A DNA stretch of 64,000 bases from Candidatus Omnitrophota bacterium (GCA_018824145.1 JAHJHC010000032.1:5330-69329), one strand, 5' to 3'. Counted from the stretch's first letter, positions 1-47,654 are shown. Notes: generated by a model from the sequence alone, not told the origin. Numbers and translations: made by a program.

Positions 1-1445
1 AAATCTTTGGCAATCGGCTCTTTTAACTCTTCAGGAATTTTCGTATCTTCATATTTACATTTCGGACAAATCAACCTTATTAAACGCTGTGCAATAAATG
101 CCTCTACGCTCGAAGCTACCAGATACGGCTCAACACCGATATCTACCAATCTAGCAATAGCACTGGCAGCATCATTAGTATGAAGCGTAGAAAATATCAG
201 ATGTCCTGTCAAGGCAACACGAATAGCAATCTCAGCAGTCTCTGAATCCCTGACCTCTCCCACCATTATCACATCAGGATCGTGTCTTAGGATACTACGG
301 AGGCCGCGGGCAAAATCCAAACCGATTTCCGGCATAACCTGCATCTGGGTTATACCCGTAATCTCATATTCAATGGGGTCTTCTATAGTAATAATCTTAC
401 GTTCCTTAGTATTTATCTTGCTTAAACAGGCATACAGCGTCGTAGTCTTTCCGCTTCCGGTAGGGCCTGTAACAAAAATAATACCATGCGGTTTCATAAC
501 TAATCTCTCAAAGATCTGCTGATCTATACCTGAAAGCCCCAATCTCTCCAGACCAAAGAGCATCTGGGTAGGAAGGATCCTTATCACTACACTCTCCCCA
601 AAAGGTGTCGGTATGGTAGATATCCTCAAATCAAGCACTTGTTCCTGAACCCTTACAACTGCCCTGCCATCCTGCGGAAGACGGCGCTCTACAATATTTA
701 AATTAGACATGATCTTAATACGTGAAATTATGGCGTTTAAGAAACCTTTTATCCCCTGCGGGACATTGGCATCATAAAGCACACCGTCTATTCGATAACG
801 AAAATATACCTTCCCTCTATACGGCTCGATATGGATATCAGTGGCCCGTTTTCTCCACCCCTCTAAGATAATCTGATTAACCAGTTTTATTACAGAGGCG
901 TCTTCAGCTAATTTTTCAATATCTTCTACTCTTTCCTGGGAAATTTCTTGGGCACTTTCTTCAGACTTAAATCCCTGCTGCGAGTCAATACTCTCCAATG
1001 TCTCAGCTGCAGTCCCATAGTATCTGTTTAAGCCATCCGTTATATCCCTTGAGCATGAAAGGACCAATTCTATATCATAACCCAACTGTGTCCTTATCTC
1101 ATCCTGCGTCTTTATATCTAACGGATAATATGCCGCGATAGTCAAAGTCCTGCCTTTGATCTTTATAGGCAAAAATTTATAATATGAGGCGATCTTTACC
1201 GGGACCTTTTCTAACACAGCCTTATTAATGAGGCTTTTCTGCAGATTAAGATAACGTACTTTTAATTTATCTGCCAGGGCATTTAACATATCTTCTTCGG
1301 GGAGGACGCCTCTGGCGATTAAAATTTGTTGGAGGTTGCCGCCTGAGGCATCTATCTCCTTAATAAGTGCATCCAACGTCTTTTTGGAAACCAGCCCTTT
1401 CTCAACCAATGCTTCATACAAAAGTCTATCGTACTTCTTAAGCAT
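1..1445 (-). CDS. Type II secretion / type IV pilus assembly ATPase, GspE/PilB family. The start is in the window and the C-terminus runs off the window edge.
   Basis: The reverse-complement translation begins MLKKYDRLLYEALVEKGL at the ATG at 1445..1443, and the gene has a GspE_N-like N-terminus. Reverse-complementing 430-470 gives MKPHGIIFVTGPTGSGKTTTLYACL, a classic Walker A of secretion ATPases. The gene is absent from the ORF track because its stop lies outside the window. Confidence 0.85.
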   Translation of the reverse strand, partial: MLKKYDRLLYEALVEKGLVSKKTLDALIKEIDASGGNLQQILIARGVLPEEDMLNALADKLKVRYLNLQKSLINKAVLEKVPVKIASYYKFLPIKIKGRTLTIAAYYPLDIKTQDEIRTQLGYDIELVLSCSRDITDGLNRYYGTAAETLESIDSQQGFKSEESAQEISQERVEDIEKLAEDASVIKLVNQIILEGWRKRATDIHIEPYRGKVYFRYRIDGVLYDANVPQGIKGFLNAIISRIKIMSNLNIVERRLPQDGRAVVRVQEQVLDLRISTIPTPFGESVVIRILPTQMLFGLERLGLSGIDQQIFERLVMKPHGIIFVTGPTGSGKTTTLYACLSKINTKERKIITIEDPIEYEITGITQMQVMPEIGLDFARGLRSILRHDPDVIMVGEVRDSETAEIAIRVALTGHLIFSTLHTNDAASAIARLVDIGVEPYLVASSVEAFIAQRLIRLICPKCKYEDTKIPEELKEPIAKD

Positions 1446-1448
1446 ATA

Positions 1449-1898
1449 TTATCTCCCCTGCACGTATTCCCGATACCTCTCGATAATATCTTTCATATCA
1501 TCTTCGGAGACCAAAACCAATTTCAACCTGGACCCCCATGTTTCTTCTTCAGCTTTTTTCAAACCCCAGGCATCTAACGGATTGGTTATCGCAACAGTAA
1601 CTGTATCACCATCTTCCTCAATAGGAAAGCATTTATAATCTAAGATCAATGAGGGGCTGAATTTTTTTACAAAGCCCCAATCAACATATTTATATTTTAT
1701 ACTAATAAACGGGATATTAAACTGTTCGGATAACACCCCTAATAAATCCCTTTCTTTGATCTCTTTTTTTTCTACTAATATTGAGCCTAAAAATTTCTTT
1801 GTTGTTTGTTGTTCCCTTAAGGCATCCTGTAATTGCTCAGACGTTATAAGGCCCTTCTCTACTAAACTATCACCTAATCGTTTCTGTTTCTTATCCAT
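1449..1898 (-). CDS. Stand-alone MshEN / GspE N-terminal-domain protein, a candidate c-di-GMP-binding adaptor.
   Basis: This is a 149-aa protein. The segment KRLGDSLVEKGLITSEQLQDALREQ matches the RLGxxLxxxGxIxxxxLxxALxxQ MshEN motif. It sits 3 nt upstream of the GspE-like ATPase gene. Confidence 0.6.
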   Translation of the reverse strand: MDKKQKRLGDSLVEKGLITSEQLQDALREQQTTKKFLGSILVEKKEIKERDLLGVLSEQFNIPFISIKYKYVDWGFVKKFSPSLILDYKCFPIEEDGDTVTVAITNPLDAWGLKKAEEETWGSRLKLVLVSEDDMKDIIERYREYVQGR

Positions 1899-1910
1899 AA
1901 TCTCGCTGCC

Positions 1911-3323
1911 TTATTTCAATGCTCCTATAAGATAAAATTCCTGTTCCGACCTATTGTCCACCCTTCCATCTATTATCCTCTCACATCCTTCCAACGTCTC
2001 GTTCACTGTTACATAAGCACCTTTTTTGCCAGTATACGACTCTGCTACAGTAAACGGCTGCGTAAGAAAATATTGCAACTTTCTGGCACGTTCGTAAATT
2101 ATTCTGTCTGCAGGGGATAATTCATCGATTCCTATAACCAATACGATACGGCGCAACTCTTCATATTTCTGAAACATCTGAACGGCTGTATGAGCAATAT
2201 CTACATGGCGTTTTCCTACGATGTCGACATCAAGGTTGGAGCTTGATGATAATAAAGGATCGACAGCCGGATAAATACCTAGCTGAACCTTTTCACGGGA
2301 AAGGACCATCACGTTATCCATAAAGCTAAAAAGCACCACTACAGCAGGATCTGTCAGGTCATCAGCAGGAACATATACACATTCAATAGAAGTAATAGAC
2401 CCTCCTCCTTTTTGGGATGTCCTTATCCTTTCGTGAAATTCGCTTACCTCTGCCATCATTGTAGGCTGATACCCTGTCTCTGAAGGAACGCGGCCCATAA
2501 GTGTAGATGTCTCAGATCCGGCTTGAACATACCGAAAAATATTATCTACAAACAGCAAGACATCCTGGTTTTTCTTTTGAATGGCTTCTGCAAGGGTAAT
2601 CCCTGTTGCGGCTACTCCAAATCTAGCTCCGGGCGGTTCGTTCATCTGACCGAATACCATCTGCGTTTTTGAAAGGACACCTGATTCTGTAAGCTCATAG
2701 TAGAGTTCATTACCTTCACGAATACGTTCTCCTATTCCTGCGAAAACACAGGACCCTTCATGCATTTTTACGATTTTCTGAATAATTTCCAAAGTAAGTA
2801 CGCTCTTCCCCATACCAGCGCCGCCTAAGATCCCGGTTTTTGAACCTTTAACCAACGGAAAAAGAAGGTCGATAATCTTAAGCCCTGTTTCTATGACATC
2901 AAAGCTTTTTTTCTTTCTACCGCCCGTTCTGAGATAACTGCCCATATGAGTCTTGTGAATAGGCATTTTCTCAACACATTCAATTTTTCCTTTCTTGTCT
3001 ATAGGCTGTCCTAACACGTTAACCAGCCGGCCGTACATGCCTTCTCCAACAGGTATCTCTATACTCTTACCTGAATAATAAGCCTCTTGATTGCGGACTA
3101 TGTTAATCGTCGAGTTTATCGCAATACAGCGCGCAATATTCCCCGGCATGTGCTCGGAGACTTCCATAAAGACTTCTTCTCCATCAACTGTATGCGTCGT
3201 AACCAAACCAAATACATTGGGGACATCATCCTGGGACACAAACTTCACATCTACTACCGGGCCCTGGACTGAAATGACGCGTCCTACTATCTTTATATCT
3301 TTTTTATTTTTTTCCACGGACAT
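1911..3323 (-). CDS. atpD: F-type ATPase beta subunit.
   Basis: The protein has GGAGMGKSVL (P-loop), QMNEPPGARFGVAATGITLAE, YVPADDLTDPAVV, IYPAVDPL and a GIDELSPADR (DELSEED-like) segment, and aligns along its full length with F1 beta. Confidence 0.9.
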   Translation of the reverse strand: MSVEKNKKDIKIVGRVISVQGPVVDVKFVSQDDVPNVFGLVTTHTVDGEEVFMEVSEHMPGNIARCIAINSTINIVRNQEAYYSGKSIEIPVGEGMYGRLVNVLGQPIDKKGKIECVEKMPIHKTHMGSYLRTGGRKKKSFDVIETGLKIIDLLFPLVKGSKTGILGGAGMGKSVLTLEIIQKIVKMHEGSCVFAGIGERIREGNELYYELTESGVLSKTQMVFGQMNEPPGARFGVAATGITLAEAIQKKNQDVLLFVDNIFRYVQAGSETSTLMGRVPSETGYQPTMMAEVSEFHERIRTSQKGGGSITSIECVYVPADDLTDPAVVVLFSFMDNVMVLSREKVQLGIYPAVDPLLSSSSNLDVDIVGKRHVDIAHTAVQMFQKYEELRRIVLVIGIDELSPADRIIYERARKLQYFLTQPFTVAESYTGKKGAYVTVNETLEGCERIIDGRVDNRSEQEFYLIGALK

Positions 3324-4152
3324 ATCTCCCTGAAATCAGTTCGCGTAGAGCTCTATCAGCAAGCTCGTGACGGACACGAAAGTATTCTAACCTTACTTTT
3401 TTGTCTTCATCCTTCAGCTTCTCGCTCGATTCATCCAGGTGAATATAGCGGGCTGAAAATTCCGCTAGCCGGCTTACTCCAAAAATATAATGAAGCTTCT
3501 CTCCCATCCAAAGGTATACCAAATACTCGATCATATCTCCCGGCCTTGACTCCAGGATTATATCCTGATTTAAAGCGGGAATGGCCTTGCTTACATCAGG
3601 GGGGCGAAAAGGCAGAAAAGATACTGTTTCTATATGTTGCACTCCAAAGGAAACAGCTCGCGGATGTACCACTTTAACCGTATCAAACTCATTGGCCAAT
3701 GCCTTTTGGAAAATATAATCGCGCAGTTGCATTGCCTGTGTATGCCTTTCCTCATCCTGAATCCCGGGAAAGTTTACTGTCGAGTAGCCTTGTCCACTAA
3801 CATACATTTTTCCGCGCGCCCCGATAATGACCATTGTCGTAGGCATTTTCTGGGCCTCCTCAAGAGCTGCGTTTATAACTTTCATATTAAGTCCGCCCAA
3901 AAAACCGGCATCTGTGGTTATAGCAATAATAGCCTGTGCTCGTCCTTTGGCTTTCATGAAAACATGATTTACCGTATCCATATCAATATCTTTTAAAAAA
4001 CTTTCAATCGAAGGAAAAAATTCCTTAAAAACATTCAATCTCTTTTCCATCATATAATACTGTGCAATAGCAATCGATTTCAGCGTCTCAATCAAAAGCG
4101 ACAGCCCTTTATTGAATTCCATGTCTTTTTTTACGCTGATTAATGTCCTCAT
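3304..4152 (-). CDS. atpG: F-type ATPase gamma subunit.
   Basis: The 282-aa protein has AIITTDAGFLGGLNMKV (compare STDRGLCGGLN) and a C-terminal helix KVRLEYFRVRHELADRALRELISG typical of gamma. It lies between the alpha and beta genes. Confidence 0.75.
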   Translation of the reverse strand: MRTLISVKKDMEFNKGLSLLIETLKSIAIAQYYMMEKRLNVFKEFFPSIESFLKDIDMDTVNHVFMKAKGRAQAIIAITTDAGFLGGLNMKVINAALEEAQKMPTTMVIIGARGKMYVSGQGYSTVNFPGIQDEERHTQAMQLRDYIFQKALANEFDTVKVVHPRAVSFGVQHIETVSFLPFRPPDVSKAIPALNQDIILESRPGDMIEYLVYLWMGEKLHYIFGVSRLAEFSARYIHLDESSEKLKDEDKKVRLEYFRVRHELADRALRELISGRYVRGKK

Positions 4153-4153
4153 G

Positions 4154-5674
4154 CTATTTTATCTTTCCTGCAATATAATCTTTCAGGCAGCTTTCCAGCT
4201 TTTCAGCCATTTCCGTACTCATTTTTTTTGCAGTACGAAGATCACTAAAGAAAGAGGGGTGTACTTTTGTAATATACGGGCAGATATCCTCTCGGAATTG
4301 CAGGATCTGTTCTTTCGACAGGTTGTCAAGGAGCCCAAGATTCAAGGCATTCAAATAAACGATCTGGGCTTCCATTAAAACAGGCTGATTCCTATACTGA
4401 TTGATAAGGGCATTGATCGCATCTCCCCGTTTTATCTTGTCCTGAGCATCCTGTGAGATCCTGCCAGACTGCATCTGGGTCACTCTTAAAAGTTCTCTAT
4501 ACTGAATATAGTCCAGCCTTAATGTTTTACTGACCGAACGCATGGCATTCCACTGGGCCTTATTCCCGATACGAGAAACGGACAACCCAAAATCAATAGC
4601 AGGCATAAAGCCTTTCTTGAAAAGTTCGGTTGCAAAATAAAGCTGGCCGTCTGTCATCGAAACAATGTTAGTAGGAATATATCCGGTAAGGTCTCCCTGA
4701 AGGATCTCAACAATGGGGAAATATGTCATTGTCCCGTTCCCCCTTTCTTTGCTTAGATACCCCGCTCTTTCCATAAGCTGGGAATGTATATAAAAGATAT
4801 CCCCGGGATAAGCTTCACGGCCGGGAGCCCTTTCCAGGAGCAAGGATAATTGGCGATAGACCCAGGCATGCTTTGTAAGATCATCAAAGACTACAAATAC
4901 ATCCTTCCCATTGTACATGAAATATTCTCCCAGCATACTCGCAGTATAAGGGGCCAGATACTGCTCGCCGGTAGATAAGGACGCTACACCCGAAACAATA
5001 ATAGTGTATTTTAAGGCATCATGTTCTTTGAGTAAATCCACCACCTTGACAAGGCTGGAATACGGTTTTCCTATTATACAATAAATACAGATAACATCCC
5101 TTCCTTTTTGATTGAGGATGGCATCCATAGCAACCGTTGTTTTTCCTGTCTGACGGTCACCGATTAAGAGCTGGCGCTGGCCTTTGGCAGTAGGAATAAT
5201 CGCATCAAGGATCAATGTGCCTGTTTCAAATGTTTTATCAACAGGCTGCCTTTCCATAACCCCGGGAGCAACACGAAAGACAGGAAAGCTGTCATTAGCC
5301 TCAATCGGCCCGAGCCCGTCCTGAGGCATGCAAAGCCCGTTTACAATCCTGCCCACGAATGCATCACCTACAGGAAGGTCCAATGACTTGCCCTTGTTAT
5401 AGATCTCATCGCCTGCGCTAATATCCGCAACATCACCTAAAACAAGGACCTGGATATCTTCTTCAGTAAAGCCTATTACAAGGCCCAGTGTGCCATTTGC
5501 AAATTCAACGATCTGCCCGTTCATGCAAAAAGGCAACCCTTTGGCTATCACGACAAATTGCCGTACGGATTCAACGTACCCGACCTCTCTTACATCAAAG
5601 CCCGTTTGTGGTTTATCCATATCTTCTTTCTCACTACTCATCAGCCTCTTTTCCTGAGGCGTCAAGCATGGCAA
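4154..5674 (-). CDS. atpA: F-type ATPase alpha subunit. The true start is probably the internal Met near 5641.
   Basis: The protein has IGDRQTGKTTVAMDAILNQ, LLLERAPGREAYPGDIFYIHSQLMERA, PTNIVSMTDGQLYF and LSVSRIG, all hallmark F1 alpha motifs. Confidence 0.9.
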   Translation of the reverse strand: MPCLTPQEKRLMSSEKEDMDKPQTGFDVREVGYVESVRQFVVIAKGLPFCMNGQIVEFANGTLGLVIGFTEEDIQVLVLGDVADISAGDEIYNKGKSLDLPVGDAFVGRIVNGLCMPQDGLGPIEANDSFPVFRVAPGVMERQPVDKTFETGTLILDAIIPTAKGQRQLLIGDRQTGKTTVAMDAILNQKGRDVICIYCIIGKPYSSLVKVVDLLKEHDALKYTIIVSGVASLSTGEQYLAPYTASMLGEYFMYNGKDVFVVFDDLTKHAWVYRQLSLLLERAPGREAYPGDIFYIHSQLMERAGYLSKERGNGTMTYFPIVEILQGDLTGYIPTNIVSMTDGQLYFATELFKKGFMPAIDFGLSVSRIGNKAQWNAMRSVSKTLRLDYIQYRELLRVTQMQSGRISQDAQDKIKRGDAINALINQYRNQPVLMEAQIVYLNALNLGLLDNLSKEQILQFREDICPYITKVHPSFFSDLRTAKKMSTEMAEKLESCLKDYIAGKIK

Positions 5675-6377
5675 CTTGTCCCAATATCTTATGTCTCAAG
5701 CTGCCGTCCAAAACAAGACTCCCTATTTCAACAATAATCCCTGCTACGATTTTAGGATCCAGTTCTTCTTTTAAGTCCATATTACTTCCCAAAAGCTTAT
5801 TCACTTTCTTTAATAATTCGGCACGATCACTGTCACTCAACGGGAAAGCAGTCAAAACTTTTATTTCCTTGATCCCTTTTATTATCTTTAATTGACCTAT
5901 CTTCTTAAAGCCGTTTTCAATAAGGTCACGGACCCATCGCGAATGAACATCCTGCTTGAATTCCTCAGGCAAGGTATTCTGAATTGACTCACATGCCTTA
6001 TTGATTGCCTCTTTTGCTATTCTTTCATCTAATTCAGCGATAATGACCTTGCGAGACCTGTCTGCCTGTTCAACAATCTCCTCACTTCGGACTCGCGCCT
6101 CTTTTAATATCTTATCCCTTTCTGCCGCTGCCTGATTAGCAATATCTAAACGTTGTTTTTCTGCCTCATTACGGGCCACGGACAACAATTCTTCAGATTT
6201 ACGTTTTGCCTCCTCAAGCCGTCTATTTATATCCTTTTCTTTTTTACTATAATCCTGGTTTAATTCTTCAAGATGTTTTGTAGCCAAAACGACATTTCTA
6301 TTCAATATATGTTTAAACATATATATAAGCCCTATAAATATAACTATCTGGAACAATACCAAGGAAATTATAAGCAT
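5634..6377 (-). CDS. F-type ATPase b subunit fused to a delta (OSCP) C-terminal domain.
   Basis: It has an N-terminal TM helix and a long charged coiled coil typical of subunit b. The C-terminus VLTAFPLSDSDRAELLKKVNKLLGSNMDLKEELDPKIVAGIIVEIGSLVLDGSLRHKIL resembles the delta C-terminal domain. At 247 aa it appears to lack a full delta N-terminal helical bundle. Confidence 0.6.
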   Translation of the reverse strand: MLIISLVLFQIVIFIGLIYMFKHILNRNVVLATKHLEELNQDYSKKEKDINRRLEEAKRKSEELLSVARNEAEKQRLDIANQAAAERDKILKEARVRSEEIVEQADRSRKVIIAELDERIAKEAINKACESIQNTLPEEFKQDVHSRWVRDLIENGFKKIGQLKIIKGIKEIKVLTAFPLSDSDRAELLKKVNKLLGSNMDLKEELDPKIVAGIIVEIGSLVLDGSLRHKILGQVAMLDASGKEADE

Positions 6378-6398
6378 CTTATCCTCTCTTTCGGGATA

Positions 6399-6614
6399 TT
6401 ACCTTGCGAACAACTGAAACACTACCAATATTGCAATAATTGCCAAGGCCTGAGCAAAGACCAGGGCTATCACTAATGCCGTAAAAATCTTAGGGGCAGC
6501 AGACGGATTCCTGCCCAATGCGCCTATACTGGCAAAACACCCTGCAGCAAACACCGCACACGGCCCCAAGATACATACTGAAAAAATTAAAATAAGTGAA
6601 ATATTACGATCCAT
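6399..6614 (-). CDS. atpE: F-type ATPase c subunit homolog lacking the ion-binding carboxylate.
   Basis: The 71-aa protein is a two-helix hairpin with an RNP loop (compare RQP). Helix 2 reads LVFAQALAIIAIL and aligns to LVEALPIIGVV of canonical c subunits. Q55 is encoded by the CAG codon at 6452..6450 on the minus strand, which I verified from the DNA. Confidence 0.65.
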   Translation of the reverse strand: MDRNISLILIFSVCILGPCAVFAAGCFASIGALGRNPSAAPKIFTALVIALVFAQALAIIAILVVFQLFAR

Positions 6615-6861
6615 TGATTATAGGAGATGATGATTCCTCGACGACAATAGTTACTTTATTCTGATCGACTTTAACGATCCCTCTCTGTATATTAAATCTC
6701 TCTTCATCTATAAACAACGCACCTGAAATAAGCCGGCTTAAAATACGTTTGTGAAACGGTATTATCTCAAATACACCTTGCTCTCCAGGAACAATCACAC
6801 TCTGTGCCTTCCCTTTAAAAATAATCTTTCTGGGTGTTAATACATCCACATCTAATTGCAT
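6604..6861 (-). CDS. atpC: F-type ATPase epsilon subunit, N-terminal beta-sandwich domain only.
   Basis: The 85-aa protein contains LDVDVLTPRKIIFKGKAQSVIVPGEQGVFEIIPFHKRILSRL, which resembles the epsilon N-domain. It overlaps the c gene by 11 nt. Confidence 0.55.
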   Translation of the reverse strand: MQLDVDVLTPRKIIFKGKAQSVIVPGEQGVFEIIPFHKRILSRLISGALFIDEERFNIQRGIVKVDQNKVTIVVEESSSPIINGS

Positions 6862-6902
6862 TTTAACCTAGTTTTTTAAATAATACAAGACCCTATGATT
6901 TT

Positions 6903-7715
6903 TTATTCAGCCTTACTTTTATTTTCCTTGGAATCCGCCTCCGGAAATGCGGATTTCTTGGCCCCTGAAAGGCTATCTTTAGTAAGACGCGCCTGATGCT
7001 GCCACGTAAAAAACAACACCCCTGCCAAAAGGCCGCTAAATATAATAATAACGAATATTACTATCCAGGTCATGGTCTTTGAAGGAGAATCCGCCTTTAT
7101 GTTGGCATCTGCCAACATACTAGGAGAAGGCGGCCCTCCGGCAGTAACAAGGATCTTCTCCATCTTAGCAATATCTTCATCTATATTTTCTATTGCAAGT
7201 AAATTCTGACGGTAAATACCAATGTGACTCTGACGGCTAACTGACTCATCAGCCTGTGTAGTTCCAATTTCACTTAAACGTTGAAAAATACTATTGGCTA
7301 TCTCCTCAGCCTTCAGATAATACTCTGTGTCTTCAAGATTAGCTAGAATCGAGTCTGTGCGTTCCCTGAAATCAAGCAATTTAGCATCAGCTACAAGCCA
7401 GACATCTCTTACCTCGATTTCAAAGACTTTAACTTCTGAAGGTGACAGTTCCACCGTCTCTTTATACAAATAGAAGATAGATCTATCAGTATCATATTCT
7501 AAGTCCAAGCCAGCTGAATTTATAATATCATCGGGTTTTATCTCTATTGGTAAATACTTTTTAACCGGGGTAGTTTGTGTTTTTGTCTTTGATGGGTTAA
7601 CTACAACAATCTTAAAGGTCACGCTTTCAGCGGCCTTTAGTTCTCCTGAGTTTATAAAACTCCACACTGAAAACACTAATAAACCCCACACTACATTTTT
7701 TAAAATTACCCGCAT
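6903..7715 (-). CDS. Hypothetical single-pass membrane or periplasmic protein, the first gene of the ATPase-like operon.
   Basis: The 270-aa protein has an N-terminal signal or anchor helix (VVWGLLVFSVWSFINSG) and a C-terminal TM (MTWIVIFVIIIFSGLLAGVLFF). An AGGAGG SD lies about 8 nt upstream of the ATG. It shows no similarity to subunit a. Confidence 0.5.
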   Translation of the reverse strand: MRVILKNVVWGLLVFSVWSFINSGELKAAESVTFKIVVVNPSKTKTQTTPVKKYLPIEIKPDDIINSAGLDLEYDTDRSIFYLYKETVELSPSEVKVFEIEVRDVWLVADAKLLDFRERTDSILANLEDTEYYLKAEEIANSIFQRLSEIGTTQADESVSRQSHIGIYRQNLLAIENIDEDIAKMEKILVTAGGPPSPSMLADANIKADSPSKTMTWIVIFVIIIFSGLLAGVLFFTWQHQARLTKDSLSGAKKSAFPEADSKENKSKAE

Positions 7716-7801
7716 CTCTTTTTCCTCCTGTTTATTATAGTTGAATAATAACTTTTATACTAATATACCATATAATATACCCTATATACCACCTAAAGTG
7801 C

Positions 7802-7834
7802 AAAAAAAACTTGCCTTTTTTAAAAAGGCAAGTT
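7802..7834 (-). terminator. Intrinsic (rho-independent) terminator downstream of the giant gene.
   Basis: The stem CTTGCC/GGCAAG (7810-7815 and 7827-7832) has an AT loop. On the minus strand it is followed by a U8 tract, the complement of A8 at 7802-7809. Confidence 0.6.
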
Positions 7835-7857
7835 TCTCTTTTGGAAATTTGGAAATT

Positions 7858-7930
7858 GGAAATTCGGGACACATCCCAATTTTCACGCGTAGCTACAAAG
7901 CTTGAAAATTGGGATGTGTCCCGAATTTCC
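7858..7930 (-). repeat. A 27-bp perfect inverted repeat with a 19-nt loop, forming a large stem-loop in the giant-gene 3' UTR and flanked by short tandem GGAAATT repeats.
   Basis: Positions 7858-7884 (ggaaattcgggacacatcccaattttc) are the exact reverse complement of 7904-7930. The loop contains the palindrome GTAGCTAC. GGAAATT occurs three times on the left flank and CGAATTTCC twice on the right. Confidence 0.8.
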
Positions 7931-7983
7931 CGAATTTCCCTTACGCGCATCCAGCATCAAACATTGAGATTCCATAAAATACC

Positions 7984-10900
7984 TTACTGCATTAGTACAA
8001 TAGGATCTTCAATCCCGCCAATTTTACTTTCAAAAGTCTGCAACACTACATCAACTGTTCCATTTATCGCGTCTGTCTTATTGCGGATCTCTTTTACAGT
8101 AGGTGATTCTGTCAAGGCCTCTTCTAAGATTGTGCCCATATCATACCCTTCCTCACCAGCTAAGGCCTTTATCCTATCCGAGACCTCATTAATTGCATTA
8201 GTGATTACAGCAGTAGGACCTTCTTTCGACATAATCTCAGGCAAAGCATCTACGGAACTCTTAAGATTCTTTAGTGTGAGCGCAATATTTATACTATCAC
8301 CGGAAATCAATACTGCCTCTAATGCCTTTATAGCCTCCAATGCCTTCTTGGCTGCACGTGATGCCTCTGGAGCTGCGGCTGCAAGTCCTGCTACTGTAGT
8401 AATACTCATGGATTCAACCATCCCTGAACCTACCAAGACTGTACCAGTCTGCTGTTCAGTGACCATGTAGGTATAGGCCTTACCAGCAGGGAAGTTTCCG
8501 TCAGCTTCAACCTTTGCTATATACATTCCCGGTGTATCCTGGGTCATAAGTAGCCCTTCTTCAATAGCATCTCCGTCCCAGGCATAAATATATACCTGCG
8601 GCAAGAGATTCGGCAACCCTATACATTGTAGAGTAATAGTATCTCCTGTTAATGCCGGATCAGGAAATACTGCAACACTCCACTCGTATTTTCCAACCAT
8701 ACCTGAACCAGTGACCAGTCCGCCTGTCTCTGATTCTTGGATAATGAAAGAGTATGCTTTACCTGCTTCAAAACTATCATCAGCTTCAAATTCATACACA
8801 TAAACTCCGTCGCTACTCTCTTTCATTATACTACTATAGACAAGGTTACTATTAACATCGTAAATATCAATTACAGGGGCTAACCCAGGTTGACCTTGGC
8901 AGTTTATGGTTACGGTTTCATTGGTCAATACTGGATTAGGGGACACACTAGCACCCCACGAATATTTCAATGCAGTTTCCATAAGGGTTTCACCTGCTTC
9001 TACAGCCATATCAGCACCTTCCTGCAAGTCCTCAATCGCTGATTGTGTCCTTGTCTCAAAACTGGTCAGTGTCATATCAACCATTGCAATCATCTCATCA
9101 GTCTTAGAATCAATAAGGGCTGACTGTTCATTCATCTTTGTCTCAATAGTCTCAGTCTGTGCTGAAACTATATCTACGACTTCATCTGTCTTTTGATCAA
9201 GAAGGATAATCTGTTGATCCATAGAAGCCTGTATCTCGCCGCTAATCACTGACATTGGTTTATCTAACACATAGTCGATCTTATCGTCCATGTTTTCAAG
9301 AGAGTCTTCCATAGATGCCATGGCAGTAGGTATAGTAACAGTGAATGATACAGGCGTTGTGAAGTTACCTCCAGTACCAAGCACAATGTAAGTCTTTACA
9401 GTATATACCTTACCTGCCTGCAAGGTATCATAGGCAGTTCCTCCGGAAGTATGAGATGTCGGAGTCCAGGTCTGTGGGAAAAAACCAGCAAAATCAATAG
9501 GAGTCTGGATTTCACCTGTCTTATAAGTTGCGCAATCTGCTATATTCTCAAACTGGAAGCGTTCCACTTCTTGCTCTAAATCAGGATCCCAACTCGTACC
9601 AAGCCAGATATCAACAGTCGACGGTATATCTTCATAGAAGTAGTGCTTCTCAGGATCCCCTGCTTGCGGTGTATCTTCTTCCTGTACTAAGATTGTCTTT
9701 CTCTTGATCTGTTCAAATCCATCGTAAATCTTTACATCAACAACCAATGCCCCAGGAACCAATGAACCATCTCTTTCCAGCCATGAAGTTATATCCAATC
9801 TGTCAGTCTCTACATCATAAGAAAACTCTGAGTACGCCCTCCAGATATGTACAACCAATGTTTCCATAGTACGGAAAATCTTCCTGTCTCCCCATACTTT
9901 ACCTTCTTCGTCCACTCCGGTAAAATATGTTACTTCAATTGGACCATAATCTTTGTGGGTGAAGGTTGCTGTCCAATTGTCAGCTGTAACATCATGGTTT
10001 TTGGGCGAACTAACACCTGTTGCGTCCCAGCCAGGCCATCCACTTGTTGAGACTTCACTTACTGTCAACCCATTTATATGCTGGTTCGTAATTAAATCTC
10101 GTATATCCCATGTAATCGTATAGTAATCTATCTTCATTGTAGTGGATACACCAGCTGGAAAACCTGGATCAACATATGGACCCTCTATAAATACGTCAGG
10201 GTCATTGTGGTCATATATACGGATCTTTACAGTATCTGAACGATCATTAGCAATCTTCCAGTCAAATGTACCAGTATTATCCCAGTCTAATGCCTGCTGC
10301 CCTAGATCATTTTTAATAAGAATCTGATTGTCAGGCACGCCGTCTGCCGGGTCTATATCCGCGAAATTATCTTTTGAATAGTATATATCTACTTTAGGTA
10401 TAGTACCAAATGTTGTCCAGGTAACTTCACGTACTTCATTTGTAACCCAGCGACACTCATAGTCTAAAACTTCTGCCGGATCCCCGCCTTCTTTCAATGC
10501 TATGGCAGGAGAAGTAAGAGTGAAATCACCCTGAATCTTAAATTCGCCGGAATCGTCATTTACAATGCTCTCCAACAGAGTCCTTGCATCAGCTACTTTT
10601 ATCACGCAGGTAGGTGAGATATAATCCTCTACTATCCATGTGAATGAATGCGTTGCACCCGGATTCTGAGGATCATATACACCGTTGGTTACGATACCTG
10701 TATTAGCAGTGCCAGGATCATTATCTTCATCTATAGGAACAAACGGGCCTCCTACACCGTTCTGCGATATGGTTATCTTCACCTGCGGCATTGTTCCGCC
10801 CCATTCCCATGTAATGTCGTGAGAACTGGCAACTGCCCATTTTTCATCTGCAACAGGTGCATGAGTTATTATATAACCTATTATCTCAAAACTTTGGCTT

Positions 10901-40008: not shown

Positions 40009-40515
40009 TTAATCGCTTATTAAGACCTCGAGCTGATTCTCAGATTCTTCTTCGGAGTCAGGCTCAGGTCTTTTTATTCTTTTTGCAGCCCTCACAAAAC
40101 TAATACTTTTTGCGAGCCATTCTTCAGTAATCCTGTTTCCTCTGTTTGGCTTAGTTACCTCATGGTAAGTCACCTTCACAGCATCGCCGACTTTTATATC
40201 GTTTAAACCCTGTTTATGCACCACCTTTGTATCTTCATCAATAAGAAAAGAATAATCAGTATTTGTCTCGGCATCACCTACGGCAATAACCGTGGGATTA
40301 AATCTGGGTGTAAAATAAATAACCTCTCCTACCAACTCTTTTTCTTTAATCATCTCTTTCACAGGAGACTGTTCGCCTTCTCCTTGCTCTTCGTCGTCTT
40401 CCTGAGCAACTCCTGCCCCTATGCCTCCTAAGAGAAAAACCGCTATTAAAAATATGAGACATACAAAAATCTTTTTCATCCCGCTATCCTCCTTACTTTT
40501 AAAAATAATATTCAT
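40009..40515 (-). CDS. Small secreted protein of unknown function, located immediately upstream of and co-oriented with the giant gene.
   Basis: The 168-aa protein has a signal peptide (KKIFVCLIFLIAVFLLGGIGAGVA), an acidic linker, a beta-rich domain and an acidic C-terminus. There is a 15-nt gap to the giant-gene ATG. Confidence 0.6.
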   Translation of the reverse strand: MNIIFKSKEDSGMKKIFVCLIFLIAVFLLGGIGAGVAQEDDEEQGEGEQSPVKEMIKEKELVGEVIYFTPRFNPTVIAVGDAETNTDYSFLIDEDTKVVHKQGLNDIKVGDAVKVTYHEVTKPNRGNRITEEWLAKSISFVRAAKRIKRPEPDSEEESENQLEVLISD

Positions 40516-41780
40516 TTCTTCATCCTATCGCCTTTAGATACAAATGTAAAATCCCTGACTGCACCGTCAGCTGAACGTTTTGTCAGCACGCCTTTTAAAA
40601 CCTCACCATCCCATTTTCCGTGCCAGCTGGCTGATTCACCCAGCTCGTTTGTCTGCATCGTCTCCCACGTAATAGTATCGTCTTTAAGCTTACGTTTCGA
40701 ATAATTTGCATCACTAAAACCTTCCCTGCTTAAATTCAGTGAAGTCAAACGATTGTATTTAAAAATGATTGTATCTTGAGCATTAAAAGCTATGCCCGGA
40801 CCTCCGACTTGCCTCAAATCAATCCTCCAGGTATACCCTTCTATTTCCATCTTCGCCTTTTCAAGTTCTTTTAAGGCATCTTCAGTCAGCCTGATCTTCC
40901 ACACGTAGTCATCTATCTCTTTATTTGCCTCAATGGCTTTATCTCTCTCACTTCTAAGCACATCTAAAGTCTTGTTATAAAGTGCCATGGTTTTATTATA
41001 CTCACTCTTCATCACAGTATGCTGTCTGTAAAAATATAAAATGACAAAGACTAAAACTAAAAATGTTATTCCACTCGAGATCATGTAAATCAGAAATGAC
41101 TTCTTAGGGACAGGTGCCTTCTTTTGTTCCTGTGCTGCACTTTCTATTCTTTTTTTAATCTCTTCTGTAAATTCCCTCGGACCCAAAATTCTTCCTTTGT
41201 GTAATTTTTTTTTAAACTCATCTATCTCTATTTGGGTAACAAATTCTGTGTATCTCTCGAATGTCTTTTCCCTGCCTTTTAAGAGTGTGAATACTTCTTC
41301 AATCTCACTACCTAACTCAGGAAAATGCCTTTTTTCCGGGTTTAAAAATTGAGGATAACTGGAAAAAGGATACGTCTTGATGTAATTTGTAAAGTCTACT
41401 CTTTTGGGATTCAGATGGATATGTCTTAAGAGCGGTAAAAGAGAACTCTCTTTCTCTGCCAGCTTAGCCTTAAACCTTTCCTGGAAAAGGTGCCCTTTTT
41501 TATTATACTTTCCGTTAAATAATTTTGTATATATGGAGTTTATATCATGCATAATACTTGAAATACCAATCTGGTTCTGTAGCTCAATAAGCATATGAAG
41601 ATGGCTAGGTAGTAAAATATAGCCGAATAGCTTAAAACTATATTGCTCTTTATATCTATTTATTAATGACACATATTCTCTATAGTCATCAGGCTGTATA
41701 AATATATTTTGATTGTGACCACCTCTTGAAGTCACGTAGTACAAAACATTTTCAACATATACTCTCGGAAGCCTTGCCAT
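40512..41780 (-). CDS. Membrane-anchored fusion protein with an N-terminal IS200/COG1943 (RAYT-like) HUH domain, a TM helix, a coiled coil and a C-terminal WETMQ domain.
   Basis: The N-terminus MARLPR...YYVTSRGG...LLPSHLHMLIE...GHLFQERF...LRHIHLNP matches the COG1943 Y1-transposase fold with HUH = HLH. A TM helix ISSGITFLVLVFVILYFY follows. The C-terminus ...ITWETMQTNELGESASWHGKWDGEVLKGVLTKRSADGAVRDFTFVS is shared with two other ORFs. The gene overlaps the next gene by 4 nt (ATGA). Confidence 0.65.
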   Translation of the reverse strand: MARLPRVYVENVLYYVTSRGGHNQNIFIQPDDYREYVSLINRYKEQYSFKLFGYILLPSHLHMLIELQNQIGISSIMHDINSIYTKLFNGKYNKKGHLFQERFKAKLAEKESSLLPLLRHIHLNPKRVDFTNYIKTYPFSSYPQFLNPEKRHFPELGSEIEEVFTLLKGREKTFERYTEFVTQIEIDEFKKKLHKGRILGPREFTEEIKKRIESAAQEQKKAPVPKKSFLIYMISSGITFLVLVFVILYFYRQHTVMKSEYNKTMALYNKTLDVLRSERDKAIEANKEIDDYVWKIRLTEDALKELEKAKMEIEGYTWRIDLRQVGGPGIAFNAQDTIIFKYNRLTSLNLSREGFSDANYSKRKLKDDTITWETMQTNELGESASWHGKWDGEVLKGVLTKRSADGAVRDFTFVSKGDRMKK

Positions 41781-42103: not shown

Positions 42104-44101
42104 TTACTCCCCCTCTTCTATACCCTTCTCCGAATACACTGCCTTCAAATGCCCCTTAATCTCAGCATTATCCGGCAAAAGAGAAGCAGCTTTTTTCAAG
42201 TAACCAAAGGCTTCATCCAAATCCCCTTTTCTATAATAAGCCCAACCCAGAGTATCCAAGGTTTCTGCACTTTCCGGATCAATAGATAAGGCCTTCTTAA
42301 GTAAGCCTATAGCCTCTGTAAAGTTATTCCTCTCAAGATAAATATAACCAAGATTATTATATGCAGCTATGCCCAATTCAGGGTCAAGTTTAATACTCTT
42401 TTTATAATATCCGATTGCTGTCTCATAATCAACTAATAAATCATACATAAGCCCAAGGTTATAGTATGCCTCTGCATAATCAGGTTCTAATTCAACGGCT
42501 TTTTTATACAATTCCGATGCCTCACTGACCTGATCTAAATCTTCATATAACACCCCTCCAAGATTATTATAAGCCTCTGCATAATCAGGCTTGATTTGAA
42601 TGGCCTTTCTAAAAGAGTTTATTGCATCATTTGTCTTTTTGCCCATATCGCGGTATGTGACACCTAAATTATTATATGTCCATGCATATCCTGAATCTAC
42701 CTCTAAGGCATTCTGATACGAATTGAGAGCATCTTCGTATAAACCAGTATTGTAGTACGCAGTACCAAGGTTATTGTAAGCCCTGTGGCTATTCGGAGAA
42801 GCCTCCACTGTCTTTGTCCAAAAAGTAACAGAGTCTCTCCAATCCAGGTTACGTTGCATGACAGTATAGGAATAGAAACTGACTACGGTAAAGATTAACA
42901 CTATAGTCGATCTTCTTGCTATCCTTTGTGGAAAAAACCGTAAGTCTAAAGAAGACAATGCTTGAACACCTATGGCAAGTAAAACGCATAATCCCACAGA
43001 AGGGATATATAGGCGCTGTTCGGCAATCGGCCTTGAGACTAAAAATATAATGTTAGAGATAGGTAAAAGGGTCAAAAATATCCAGAAAAGAAAGAATAAA
43101 ACCAGTCTCGAATGTCTAAATGCCTTAATGACTATAACTGTAAGGACAACGAGTAATAATGCAGAGAAAAGCACTGCGGGTTCAAAGAAAGATCCAGGTA
43201 TACTGAAAGACCGCTCGGCATTAAGATTAAAAGGAAATACAAGCAGTTTAACATAGTAACCTATGGTCTTTATGACAGTTAATATTTTAGGATACAGGCT
43301 GATCTTTACAACTAGATTCTTGCCTGAACCTACTGTTCCCAGGATAATTATTTTAAAAATAATATAAAGAATCGCAAGGCCCCAAAAAGGCAATGTCTTA
43401 GTTATAAAACCCTTGTATTCTTCTTTCGGAACAAAACATATAACATACAAGACTAATATAAACGGCAAAGTAATGGCCATTGCCTTTGAAAAAAGAGCGA
43501 GTATAAAACATAAAAGGCTTGCACTATAAAAAACTATACGGCTTTTCAATCTATCTTGAAGCCTGAATTTTGTAAAAAGAATGAATGATAAAATAAAAAA
43601 TATTAATGCCAAGGGATCAGAACGATTCTTTATCCACGTAATAGATTCAGTATGGATCGGGTGGACTGCAAAGAAGAGCGCTGAGAGAAAAGCCAGGTTA
43701 AATAACCTCCCGTGCCTTGTTTGCAGCGCGACTATATTAAGTATAAAGAAATATATTAAGATAACATTTATTATATGCAAGAAAAGGCTGGTCAGATGAT
43801 AGCCAAAGGGGTTTAATTTCCATAAAGAATAATCAAATGCAAAACTAGCCATTAATATAGGACGAAAATTCACCTTCTCCTCTTGATTATGCTCTCTACT
43901 CAACATTAAATAAAATTGCCTCCAATACCGGGGAGTGAATAAAGATGGGATATTCTTTGGATTACTAATATACTCCCCCTTCGACACAATAACCTTATCA
44001 TCCCAGATAAAGGAATTTTTGAAGGTATTGGAGTAGACAATAATAGATATAAGTATTAAAAATATAATAAAAATTGTGTGTTTACTGATAGCAGTATCCA
44101 T
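42104..44101 (-). CDS. TMTC/DUF1736-type GT-C membrane glycosyltransferase-like protein with C-terminal TPR repeats (paralog 5).
   Basis: The 665-aa protein has the N-terminal motif NSFIWDDKVIV and PFGYHLTSLFLHIINV, followed by about 10 TM helices and a C-terminal TPR array (AYNNLG.. repeats). Confidence 0.75.
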   Translation of the reverse strand: MDTAISKHTIFIIFLILISIIVYSNTFKNSFIWDDKVIVSKGEYISNPKNIPSLFTPRYWRQFYLMLSREHNQEEKVNFRPILMASFAFDYSLWKLNPFGYHLTSLFLHIINVILIYFFILNIVALQTRHGRLFNLAFLSALFFAVHPIHTESITWIKNRSDPLALIFFILSFILFTKFRLQDRLKSRIVFYSASLLCFILALFSKAMAITLPFILVLYVICFVPKEEYKGFITKTLPFWGLAILYIIFKIIILGTVGSGKNLVVKISLYPKILTVIKTIGYYVKLLVFPFNLNAERSFSIPGSFFEPAVLFSALLLVVLTVIVIKAFRHSRLVLFFLFWIFLTLLPISNIIFLVSRPIAEQRLYIPSVGLCVLLAIGVQALSSLDLRFFPQRIARRSTIVLIFTVVSFYSYTVMQRNLDWRDSVTFWTKTVEASPNSHRAYNNLGTAYYNTGLYEDALNSYQNALEVDSGYAWTYNNLGVTYRDMGKKTNDAINSFRKAIQIKPDYAEAYNNLGGVLYEDLDQVSEASELYKKAVELEPDYAEAYYNLGLMYDLLVDYETAIGYYKKSIKLDPELGIAAYNNLGYIYLERNNFTEAIGLLKKALSIDPESAETLDTLGWAYYRKGDLDEAFGYLKKAASLLPDNAEIKGHLKAVYSEKGIEEGE

Positions 44102-44108
44102 TATAATC

Positions 44109-46169
44109 TCAATCTTCAGTCTTCTGGAGATTTTCTAAATTCCCCTTGGCATCTTCGTTATCAGGATCAATCTCTAATATTCTCTCCCAATGACCTCTTG
44201 CCTTATTGATAAGTCCCTTATCGCGAAATATACGCGCAAGGTTTCTGTGGGCCTTTATATGATCAGGAGCTAGCTCAATAGTTTTTTCCAGGTATGTTAT
44301 TGCAGTGTCTTTTTCTCCTAAATCAGTATATAACGCGCCTATATTATTGTATGCATCAGCATATTCTGAATCAAGTTCAATAGCCTTCTTATAGTATCTC
44401 AATGCCTCTCCCTGAAGCCCTGATGAGTCATAAAATAACCCCAAGTTATAATAGGCCTCTGCATAGTCAGGTTTAAGCTCTATAGCCCTTTTATAGAGAA
44501 TCTCTACCTGACTAATCTGGCCGGACTCTGAATATAGGACCCCTGCAAGATTATTATATGCCTCTGCATAATCAGGTTTCAGTTCAATAGCCCTTTTTAG
44601 ATGCAGAAAGACATTATCAACTAAGCCATTTTCTATATAAAGCACCACACCAAGGTTACTATAGGCCTCTGCATAGCCAGGCATAAGTTCAATGGCCTTC
44701 TTGAATGCATCTATCGCCATCTCATTTTCTCCTATGTCGCGGTACGCGGCGCCAAGATTATTATACGCCATAGCATATTTTGGATCGATTTCTATAGCCT
44801 TTTTATATGAAGCTATGGCCTCCTGATATTGTCCGATATTATAGTATGCAGCGCCAAGATTATTATGGGTCCTCGCATTATTCGGAGATAAAGAAACTGC
44901 CTTTGTCCATAGTGTTAACGGCTTTCTCCAATCAAAGTTACGATTTATAGCAATAGTCGAGTAAAAAATAAATATGGCTATAGTAAATAACACTGCTAAG
45001 TTTTTCAAGATTTTACGGGAAAAAAACCTTGATTCTAAAAAAGGGATCGCCCTAATACCCATCGCAAGTATAATACAAAAACCCAATGAAGGGATGTAAA
45101 GGCGCTGTTCAGCGATAGGCCTTGCATACAAAAATATGATATTTGAAGCAGGAAGTAATGTTATGAAAAACCACAGGATTCCGAATGATACCATCCTGGA
45201 ATATTTTAATCCCCTTATAACCATAATCGCCAAAACCAACAACATCAGTGAAGATAGAACAACCCCTATCTCAAAAAACGATTTGGGGACAGATAGAAAA
45301 TGTTCGATATTAAGATTAATGGGGAGAATTAAAAGTTTCATATAATAACCCATGGTCTTAATGACTGCCAGGATATGATAATGTATGCCGAGCTTAATAA
45401 TGCTCTCATCCGAGAGCACACTTATAAGGCCCTTGAGCTTGAATGCAAGATAGAAAAATATAATTCCAAAATAGCTTCCTATACCGACCAATGCGCCTTT
45501 ATATTCTTTTTTTGGAAGGAAATAAATAGCATAGAGGATTAACACAAGGGGCAGTGTAATAGCTGTTTCTTTTGAAAAAAGTGCAAGCACGAAAGAAATC
45601 TGGCTTGCAAAATAAAGAATAATGCGGCCCCTGAGTACTTTTTCCTTAGAGACGTATTTTATAAAAAAAAGGAATGAAAGGAGTAAAAATAATAAACTCA
45701 ATAAATCAAAACGATTCTTTATCCATGCAATAGACTCTGTATGTACAGGATGCACGGCAAAGAATAATGCGGCAAGAAAAGGCAGGTCAAGTAAAACCCC
45801 CTCCTTTTCAGGCGGCCTTACTAATCTAAAAATAATAAGATATATCAGGATAACGTTTAATATATGCAGCAATAAGTTAGTCAAATGGTAACCAAAAGGT
45901 CTTAGATTCCATATTAAATAATCTAATGTAAAACTTGCAAGACTTACCGGTCGATACTGTCCCTTACTGCCCGGATAATAATAATTCCAATATTTAGGAT
46001 TAAATAAAAAGGGGATATCTTTTAAGCTCTTCGTATATCTATTATCAACGATCAACTCTTCTTCGTCCCACACGAACGGATTCTTGAAGGTATTGGAGAA
46101 AACAATAATAGAGATAAGAATCAATAAGATAAGAGGTATAAAATATTTCCTGGTATTATATTCTTCCAT
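44109..46169 (-). CDS. TMTC/DUF1736-type GT-C membrane protein with TPR repeats (paralog 4).
   Basis: The 686-aa protein has NPFVWDEEELIV and PFGYHLTNLLLHILNV, a multi-TM core and TPR repeats. Confidence 0.75.
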   Translation of the reverse strand: MEEYNTRKYFIPLILLILISIIVFSNTFKNPFVWDEEELIVDNRYTKSLKDIPFLFNPKYWNYYYPGSKGQYRPVSLASFTLDYLIWNLRPFGYHLTNLLLHILNVILIYLIIFRLVRPPEKEGVLLDLPFLAALFFAVHPVHTESIAWIKNRFDLLSLLFLLLSFLFFIKYVSKEKVLRGRIILYFASQISFVLALFSKETAITLPLVLILYAIYFLPKKEYKGALVGIGSYFGIIFFYLAFKLKGLISVLSDESIIKLGIHYHILAVIKTMGYYMKLLILPINLNIEHFLSVPKSFFEIGVVLSSLMLLVLAIMVIRGLKYSRMVSFGILWFFITLLPASNIIFLYARPIAEQRLYIPSLGFCIILAMGIRAIPFLESRFFSRKILKNLAVLFTIAIFIFYSTIAINRNFDWRKPLTLWTKAVSLSPNNARTHNNLGAAYYNIGQYQEAIASYKKAIEIDPKYAMAYNNLGAAYRDIGENEMAIDAFKKAIELMPGYAEAYSNLGVVLYIENGLVDNVFLHLKRAIELKPDYAEAYNNLAGVLYSESGQISQVEILYKRAIELKPDYAEAYYNLGLFYDSSGLQGEALRYYKKAIELDSEYADAYNNIGALYTDLGEKDTAITYLEKTIELAPDHIKAHRNLARIFRDKGLINKARGHWERILEIDPDNEDAKGNLENLQKTED

Positions 46170-47652: not shown

Positions 47653-47654
47653 CG

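Follow-up and report, generated by a model that had tools for sequence, protein, structure and literature searches.

Here we report a cluster of seven genes in a 64,000-nucleotide (nt) stretch of DNA from a Candidatus Omnitrophota bacterium (GCA_018824145.1, JAHJHC010000032.1:5330-69329; hereafter the window, meaning this whole stretch) that encodes a derivative of the F-type ATPase (F1Fo) located between the gene of a giant surface protein and type IV pilus genes. The cluster comprises the alpha, beta, gamma, epsilon and c subunits, a b-delta fusion and, as its first gene, a 270-residue protein that we name X270. With moderate confidence, we interpret the encoded complex as an F1Fo-derived mechanical device that would be driven by ATP hydrolysis, would have left chemiosmosis, and would be coupled to the giant surface protein. 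The strongest evidence against ion translocation is the variability of the c-subunit carboxylate together with the absence of an a-subunit, and the link to the giant protein comes from relatives in which X270 forms the C-terminus of the giant open reading frame (ORF) itself.

All seven ORFs lie on the minus strand within positions 1911-7715, at the places given for them in a preliminary description of this DNA. The tight packing claimed in that description is borne out by the coordinates, by the spacing between the cluster genes (gaps of 41, 21, 1 and 12 nt, overlaps of 11, 41 and 20 nt), and by Pfam, which names six of the seven ORFs as ATPase subunits, X270 being the exception. Transcription proceeds from the giant ORF across a 268-nt spacer to X270, epsilon, c, b-delta, alpha, gamma and beta, and then, as had been stated, continues into MshEN and GspE genes. 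The features of the locus are as follows.

7984-39993, minus strand: giant surface protein, 10,669 aa, from the ORF call.
7716-7983, minus strand: intergenic spacer with a stem-loop, a hairpin, an AT-rich stretch and a ribosome-binding site.
6903-7715, minus strand: X270, 270 aa, with no meaningful Pfam match and no NCBIfam match.
6604-6861, minus strand: epsilon, 85 aa, N-terminal domain only (Pfam ATP-synt_DE_N, 2.5e-15).
6399-6614, minus strand: c-subunit hairpin, 71 aa (Pfam ATP-synt_C, 21.9 bits).
5634-6377, minus strand: b-delta fusion, 247 aa (C-terminal part of Pfam OSCP, 2.8e-14, plus a weak ATP-synt_B match).
4154-5674, minus strand: alpha, 506 aa as an ORF from the TTG at 5674 (Pfam, 1.4e-66).
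3304-4152, minus strand: gamma, 282 aa (Pfam ATP-synt, 1.5e-28, 100.8 bits).
1911-3323, minus strand: beta, 470 aa (Pfam ATP-synt_ab, 2.5e-65).
1449-1898, minus strand: stand-alone MshEN protein (Pfam MshEN, 1e-10).
1-1445, minus strand: type IV pilus assembly ATPase PilB/GspE, N-terminal part; at full length it has 718 aa with MshEN, T2SSE and PilZ domains.
62020-63882, minus strand: secretin, PilQ/GspD-like (Pfam Secretin, 7.8e-54, plus Secretin_N), at the far end of the co-oriented locus.

The gene order had been described as inverted, with epsilon first rather than last. The position of epsilon at the front stands, and the inversion does not, since c, b(-delta), alpha, gamma and beta stand in canonical order and epsilon alone has been relocated. 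PilB starts 466 nt past the end of beta. The genes after it, for PilC, a Peptidase_MA protein and three pilin-like proteins, were identified in an overlapping assembly that extends beyond the end of the window.

The cluster is a conserved system of the Omnitrophota and not an oddity of one genome. Approximately 120 related loci, some of them redundant, were collected by context look-ups, by a scan with an X270 alignment against one genome per species (39 loci), and by a metagenome scan in the reverse direction with a b-delta alignment (80 loci). This comparison with relatives, which had been proposed along with the preliminary description, recovered the same operon, with identical gene set and order in all 64 complete seven-gene operons and with MshEN/PilB directly after the operon in 56 of them. 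The named relatives that carry the cluster all belong to Omnitrophota. For X270, 78 homologues were found (41-67% identity), and nearly all of them carry an Omnitrophota label; the window protein has the same sequence as a hypothetical protein from a metagenome-assembled genome (MAG) of Candidatus Omnitrophica, the contig itself belonging to such a MAG. Gamma has 186 homologues; of the 120 that were listed, those with a name are all from Omnitrophota or an unclassified bacterium, and their public annotation is 'F0F1 ATP synthase subunit gamma'. Overall, the named homologues of gamma and X270 come from Omnitrophota or from a likely mis-binned MAG. In the loci fetched via b-delta, which served as the reverse test, X270 or a giant ORF is found upstream wherever the DNA is long enough.

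The alpha and beta subunits resemble those of canonical F1. Alpha passes the NCBIfam atpA equivalog cut-offs (525 against 484 and 560 against 554), and beta passes the atpD equivalog cut-off (550 against 463). The best PDB matches are canonical F1 alpha (485 bits) for alpha and canonical F1 beta (479 bits) for beta, for which the Mycoplasma mobile G1 beta scores 349. The alpha motif GDRxTGKT is present in 68 of 71 sequences and the arginine-finger motif SVSRIG in all 71; beta has the P-loop GGAGMGKS and a conserved Walker B motif, and its catalytic motif GxGERxREG is found in 57 of 57 sequences. From these motifs, the alpha3beta3 head looks catalytically competent. With respect to the alpha gene model, the ATG at 5641 is a likelier start than the TTG, because most homologues are 489-497 aa long and this start gives a protein of 495 aa; it also reduces the overlap with b-delta from 41 to 8 nt.

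The subunits of the rotor and the stalk are more divergent, and gamma, epsilon, c and b-delta all score under their NCBIfam cut-offs. Gamma is of full length, covering positions 15-281 of the 285 in the Pfam profile, and reaches 69.6 bits in NCBIfam against a cut-off of 194. The C-terminal helices of epsilon inhibit hydrolysis in many bacteria; here epsilon consists of the beta-sandwich domain only, most family members having 74-85 aa, and the subunit therefore lacks the hydrolysis-inhibiting helices together with the C-terminal domain. The b-delta protein combines an N-terminal transmembrane (TM) helix, a b-like coiled coil and a C-terminal delta/OSCP part that matches positions 99-165 of the 172 in the OSCP profile; the N-terminal domain of delta was not detected in it by Pfam, NCBIfam or the family alignment. 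When compared with the b-subunit model of N-ATPases (TIGR03321), b-delta aligns over positions 8-229 of 246 with a score of 41 against a cut-off of 225.

The c-subunit match is just below the Pfam cut-off of 24 bits in the window, and in relatives the hit is unmarked. The hairpin can be aligned cleanly to reference c-subunits of Bacillus PS3, E. coli and I. tartaricus; in this alignment the RNPS loop falls on RQPE, and Gln55 of the window protein aligns with the essential Glu56 of PS3. The c-subunit defect to which the preliminary description refers is confirmed, with Gln55 in the place of the essential Glu/Asp. The membrane-embedded carboxylate is essential and invariant in working ion-translocating c-rings; among the 101 unique c-subunits of this family, the same column holds Gln in 47, Glu in 47, Phe in four, Ala in two and Trp in one. 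Many other positions of the protein, including the cytoplasmic RNPS loop, are conserved at 90% or more. When the states of the carboxylate site are mapped on a neighbour-joining tree of alpha, they are interspersed and switch five times or more. This pattern indicates an ion-binding site that is unconstrained within an otherwise strongly constrained protein. Gamma, the short epsilon, c and the membrane-anchored b-delta stalk appear to be retained under purifying selection.

Minor variations of the operon were observed in several loci. Tandem pairs of c-subunit genes occur in two of them, L009 (2861-3326) and L043 (988-1498); the carboxylate site holds Glu and Trp in the two copies of the former and Gln in both copies of the latter, which hints at heteromeric c-rings in some species. 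A 119-aa ORF for a secreted protein sits between c and b-delta in L012, and a 107-aa ORF whose N-terminus resembles a GIY-YIG nuclease by eye lies between alpha and gamma in L018 (13564-13887).

Neither the 64-kb window nor approximately 16 kb beyond its two ends was found to contain an a-subunit (ATP-synt_A), in agreement with the earlier statement that the window has no a-subunit-like ORF. These flanks, about 6.6 kb past one end and 10 kb past the other, were taken from overlapping assemblies with identical flanking genes; one holds PilB, PilC, the Peptidase_MA protein and the pilins, and the other holds two-component signalling genes. The polytopic ORFs of the window are limited to one LPG_synthase_TM protein and five proteins with 8-11 TM helices and tetratricopeptide repeats (TPR), and the arginine motif of a-subunits was not found in any of the long hydrophobic ORFs of the window. 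In the genome-derived related loci that were checked, no unassigned polytopic ORF lies inside the operon, and the polytopic ORFs in their flanks comprise proteins of approximately 405 aa at the position of PilC (T2SSF), one PAS protein and one unassigned ORF of 248 aa.

The giant ORF contains approximately 96 Ig-like repeats of about 105-118 aa. Its product has a high content of Thr, Asp and Ser and a single hydrophobic segment near its N-terminus; a Pfam search of its first and last 1200 aa gave no match. It has no C-terminal TM helix in this genome. The preliminary description had regarded the first gene of the cluster as foreign and without a counterpart in ATP synthases. It is no independent accessory: in 71 loci the giant ORF carries the X270 module in frame as its C-terminal end, and in 12, including the window, the module has a gene of its own, while ten loci are too short to judge and two estuarine loci lack it. 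Residues 31-267 of X270 align with the extreme end of the fused ORFs, and the last 800 aa of the window giant ORF align with the stretch just N-terminal of the X270 module in the fused ORFs of eight relatives, at roughly 30-62% identity (mostly 42-62%, lower in one relative). At the junction, the end of the window giant protein, ...ESKIGGIEDPIVLMQ followed by the stop, matches ...EAKFGGKDAPVVSTSL-PGSVKFR-NPS... of the fused proteins. By these alignments, X270 is identified as the C-terminal module of the upstream giant protein, a membrane anchor that has been split off; the giant ORF of the window is without a C-terminal TM helix, and the split therefore removed its C-terminal anchor. When encoded separately, X270 bears its own signal-like N-terminus. 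Judged from gene context, the link between the cluster and the giant protein is obligatory and usually covalent. Two apparently complete fused ORFs of lower length, L027 (3313 aa) and L013 (1297 aa), were rejected as true lengths; they start inside the repeats without a signal peptide and are probably broken giant genes.

The AlphaFold2 (AF2) model of X270 has a mean predicted local distance difference test (pLDDT) score of 84 and shows a signal-like helix, a periplasmic beta-sandwich (residues 31-103), a three-helix bundle (110-191), a GGPP linker, a TM helix (213-256) and a short cytoplasmic tail. The first gene had been described as encoding a single-pass, signal- or TM-anchored periplasmic protein; this needs correction, the protein having both an N-terminal signal-like helix and a C-terminal TM helix. 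The TM helix is 44 residues long in the model and would reach into the cytoplasm. Together with its flanks, it is among the most conserved parts of the family alignment, which suggests specific helix-helix contacts within the membrane, and the cytoplasmic tail of the anchor module is conserved as well. Only a sub-threshold EmrE match was found for X270 in Pfam and none in NCBIfam, the 78 homologues have no Pfam family of this kind, and a structure search returned no specific structural relative. The topology of X270 is like that of Voa1 and Ac45/ATP6AP1, type I membrane proteins accessory to V-ATPases that reside in the c-ring lumen and have a lumenal domain, a C-terminal TM helix and a short tail; no relation in sequence or fold was detected between them and X270, and the resemblance is topological only.

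The spacer at 7716-7983 arose from the gene split. It contains, on the minus strand, a 31-bp stem-loop with 97% complementarity between its arms (7858-7888 and 7900-7930), a hairpin with a T-run that resembles a terminator (7807-7835), an AT-rich stretch resembling a promoter and, before the ATG of X270, a strong ribosome-binding site, AGGAGG. The sequence of the stem-loop arm occurs once in the window, and an Rfam search of positions 1300-8300 gave only sub-threshold matches to miRNA-like hairpins on this stem-loop. The spacer hairpins could act as a terminator or an attenuator that sets the ratio of the giant-gene and ATPase transcripts.

The preliminary description had suggested an F1Fo-derived rotary ATPase that is neither proton- nor sodium-coupled and that may have been repurposed for secretion, assembly or surface-structure work, possibly for the adjacent giant protein or pilus. 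Its first part has been strengthened by the lack of an a-subunit gene in the operons checked and by the variable carboxylate, and the service to the giant protein or pilus has gained from the fusion of the first gene with the giant ORF; both the mechanism and the role are put forward here conditionally. In the mechanism that we propose, F1 would hydrolyse ATP and rotate the c-ring, together with gamma and epsilon, against the b-delta stalk, and the very conserved TM helix of X270 would engage the membrane part of the complex, either in or on the c-ring or beside the helix of b. Torque or cyclic displacement would then cross the inner membrane and reach the giant fibre at its base. The fibre might be twisted, tensioned or retracted, and the device would act with the adjacent type IV pilus machinery, which senses cyclic di-GMP (c-di-GMP), when the bacterium attaches to cells of a host or prey. 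A more specific version, in which an ion-blind c-ring bears the TM helix of the giant anchor and transmits rotation as torque to a fibre of approximately 100 domains and more than 10,000 residues that would be twisted, reeled in or put under tension on attachment to prey or host, is offered tentatively as a possible though doubtful form of this mechanism.

Several points weigh against a mechanical device coupled to the giant protein. ATP hydrolysis, rotation and the contact of X270 with c or b are steps that we infer from sequence, and without an a-subunit the b-delta stator would lack an evident hold against torque. The absence of an a-subunit gene (atpB) refers to the window and its approximately 16 kb of flanks. 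About half of the c-subunits of the family keep the Glu, and ion binding is possible in those members. No covariation was found between the state of the c site (Glu or non-Glu) and columns of the X270 TM helix and tail, the b TM helix or c; the top signals are variable tail positions and are consistent with phylogenetic noise. Finally, in two loci of a small estuarine-sediment clade, L094 (14-4708) and L101 (45-3333), the giant Ig-repeat ORF stops just before epsilon and carries neither the X270 module nor a C-terminal TM helix; because these loci have a giant ORF without X270, the anchor is not universal and not strictly required.

Four other explanations were weighed. The first is that the complex is a motor or energiser for the type IV pilus or for secretion, serving assembly, rotation or retraction, with the adjacency to the giant gene being secondary. 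This agrees with the presence of MshEN, PilB (with PilZ), PilC and pilins directly downstream in those 56 of 64 complete loci, with a secretin within the same locus, and with the co-location described by Seymour et al. (PMC10066038), who report type-4a pili within 10 kb for 57 of 66 contigs. We nevertheless consider it unlikely: the sole physical link, the gene fusion, is with the giant protein and with no pilus component, and all loci with sufficiently long DNA have the giant ORF upstream. Moreover, type IV pilus systems already have hexameric ATPases of their own, none of them known to require an F-type partner.

The second is an ATPase for export or assembly of the giant protein that would work in the manner of FliI/FliH/FliJ, by unfolding, hand-over or insertion and with no sustained rotation. 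FliI is a homologue of F1 alpha/beta, FliH of b-delta and FliJ of gamma, the giant protein must be exported, and the cytoplasmic tail of its anchor is conserved. However, the complete rotor has been kept, with distinct alpha and beta, full gamma, epsilon, and c with the conserved loop that contacts gamma and epsilon, and export would not need it. FliI/SctN export ATPases form a single homo-hexamer, whereas alpha and beta are distinct proteins here and score only 166-193 bits on FliI/SctN models with cut-offs of 380-620 (for example, 192 against 619); the signal-like segment at the N-terminus of the giant protein suits export by Sec. Dedicated export is decidedly unlikely in our judgement. The analogy to FliI/FliH/FliJ drawn in the preliminary description is less apt than a comparison with a rotary or torque device, given that the whole rotor of gamma, epsilon and c and a stator stalk are retained.

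A conventional ion-coupled F1Fo with its a-subunit encoded elsewhere in the genome is very unlikely. In its favour, other bacteria are known to have split atp operons, the scores of alpha and beta lie above the canonical cut-offs, public records name an F0F1 ATP synthase, and the Glu is kept in about half of the family. Against this, the window c-subunit has Gln, and the other half of the family has Gln, Phe, Ala or Trp at this site, with switches among close relatives; an a-subunit is found neither inside the operon in the related loci checked nor in the window and its flanks; gamma, epsilon, c and b-delta are below the NCBIfam cut-offs; and the operon is locked to giant-protein and pilus genes and not to housekeeping genes. 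That the operon is a decaying, functionless remnant of an ATP synthase, as the loss of a and of the c carboxylate, the truncated epsilon and the divergent gamma, c and b might suggest, is barely credible given seven intact ORFs in the same order in all 64 complete loci of diverse species, conserved catalytic motifs, and strong conservation of c, b-delta and X270.

The cluster is embedded in a larger co-oriented locus. A stand-alone MshEN protein of approximately 150 aa lies between beta and full-length PilB in most relatives. MshEN and PilZ are c-di-GMP-binding domains, and the combination of this protein with the MshEN and PilZ domains of PilB suggests a layered control of the locus by c-di-GMP. 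The interval between the secretin and the giant gene (42104-57499, minus strand) encodes the five 8-11-TM TPR proteins, which are paralogous, as well as two B12-binding radical SAM enzymes, a GT9 glycosyltransferase and the LPG_synthase_TM protein; it is a possible island of genes for modifying or glycosylating the giant protein, which is rich in Thr and Ser. Three proteins encoded at 40512-41780, 57534-58268 and 60305-60736 (minus strand) have in common a small domain at their C-terminus, recognisable by the motif (I/V)xWETMQ...W.G......G.L. One of them is fused to an IS200-like Y1 transposase domain (Pfam Y1_Tnp, 2.4e-10) and a TM helix, and the other two are small, secreted and without a Pfam match; together they look like an unrecognised domain family scattered over the locus. 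Upstream of the giant gene, also on the minus strand, are genes for a SurA_N and cyclophilin isomerase (58261-59757) and for the secretin (62020-63882). This pair recalls the conserved secretion-system locus that the preprint of West-Roberts et al. describes near giant genes of Omnitrophota, with no mention of F-type ATPases. The isomerase of that locus is of the Rotamase_2 type, in contrast to the cyclophilin found here, and the giant protein of the window differs in kind from those of West-Roberts et al. in having Ig-like repeats and a single TM segment.

Compared with canonical F1Fo, the cluster retains the profile scores of alpha and beta, the c-b-(delta)-alpha-gamma-beta order, a rotor of gamma, epsilon and c, and a b-type stalk. 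It differs in the absence of a, in a c carboxylate that is not conserved, in a short epsilon at the front of the operon, in a delta part without a detected N-terminal domain, and in the setting of the operon between a giant surface-protein gene and pilus genes. N-ATPases (Dibrova et al. 2010, PMC2881411) are encoded by atpDCQRBEFAG operons with beta first and with the a-subunit, AtpQ and AtpR present; their c-subunits have the full Na+-binding set including two Glu, and they were argued not to make ATP (PMC2881411). The cluster shares with them the lack of a separate delta/atpH gene, a long b/AtpF with a C-terminal delta part, and an epsilon gene upstream of c. In contrast, a, Q and R are absent here, the carboxylate is dispensable, and the order is X270-epsilon-c-b-delta-alpha-gamma-beta. 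Alpha and beta score 511 against a cut-off of 750 and 475 against 752 with the alt_F1F0 models (TIGR03324, TIGR03305). Membership in the N-ATPases was rejected on these scores and on the absence of AtpQ, AtpR and a.

The closest described system is the 'non-respiratory' or 'symbiotic' F-type ATPase (sF-ATP) that Seymour et al. 2023 (Nat Microbiol, PMC10066038) reported beside type-4a pili in Omnitrophota, and the window cluster very probably belongs to the same family. The likeness lies in the restriction to Omnitrophota, the position beside type-4a pilus genes, the proposal of a non-respiratory role, and the occurrence of giant ORFs in the genomes; of the marks of sF-ATP, the window has both the Omnitrophota origin and type-4a pilus genes within 10 kb. 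As far as the available portions go, Seymour et al. (PMC10066038) define sF-ATP only by the phylogeny of alpha and beta together with co-location; they place alpha with Mycoplasma types 2 and 3, whereas alpha and beta of the window score far higher on canonical F1 than on Mycoplasma models, a comparison of scores and not of trees. The idea of repurposing that the preliminary description put forward is partly supported here, and in outline it is not new. In the portions available, the paper and its supplements hold no mention of a missing a-subunit, a variable c carboxylate, a b-delta fusion, a short epsilon or a link to a giant anchor, and a literature search on F-ATPases without a, or on Glu-to-Gln variants of the c-ring in Omnitrophota, returned nothing beyond Seymour et al. 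2023. The existence and a non-respiratory role of the system have thus already been proposed; what appears to be new is its anatomy, namely the missing channel, the dispensable carboxylate, an epsilon without its brake, a stalk like that of N-ATPases and, above all, the fusion of its first product to the giant protein. In a 2026 preprint on 176 complete genomes, F1 alpha/beta were found in 125 and gamma at the level of KEGG Orthology (KO) in 30, and F1Fo was called incomplete; the same preprint reports V/A-type ATPases in 70-99% of Gorgyraeia outside Pluralincolimonadales. The low number of KO-level gamma subunits would be explained by the divergent gamma described here. For these genes, labels such as 'F0F1 ATP synthase' in public records, and their counting in metabolic reconstructions as a chemiosmotic apparatus or an 'incomplete' one, are probably wrong.

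The F1-like ATPases of Types 2 and 3 in Mycoplasma (PMC3369863, PMC8406192, PMC11864180) offer a functional parallel, being F1-derived, outside chemiosmosis and devoted to mechanical work. The G1-ATPase of the Mycoplasma mobile gliding motor is moreover tied to very large surface proteins, Gli349 and Gli521, in a bacterium that is small and depends on a host. Seven genes make up each of the Mycoplasma clusters, for alpha-, beta-, gamma- and epsilon-like subunits and three unrelated proteins (one with 12 TM helices and one with three), and no recognisable c, b or delta, whereas the cluster of Omnitrophota keeps c and b-delta, and no polytopic partner was detected in it. Alpha and beta of the window fail the cut-offs of the MMOB1660/1670 and MSC_0619/0618 families (388 against 600, 418 against 850, 299 against 520 and 394 against 570), and an origin independent of the Mycoplasma systems is likely. 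Rotary ATPases are known from textbooks as ion-coupled machines; the gliding motor is their only well-studied mechanical repurposing, and all recognisable Fo parts have been lost from it. If the more specific version given above is true, in which the c-ring passes torque to the fibre, the rotary ATPase scaffold would have a third use besides ion pumping/ATP synthesis and Mycoplasma gliding, and the Fo rotor would for the first time serve as the mechanical output itself. The cluster offers a testable route to the role and the powering of giant proteins in ultra-small predatory or episymbiotic Omnitrophota, and to the re-use of an F-type rotor as a mechanical element.

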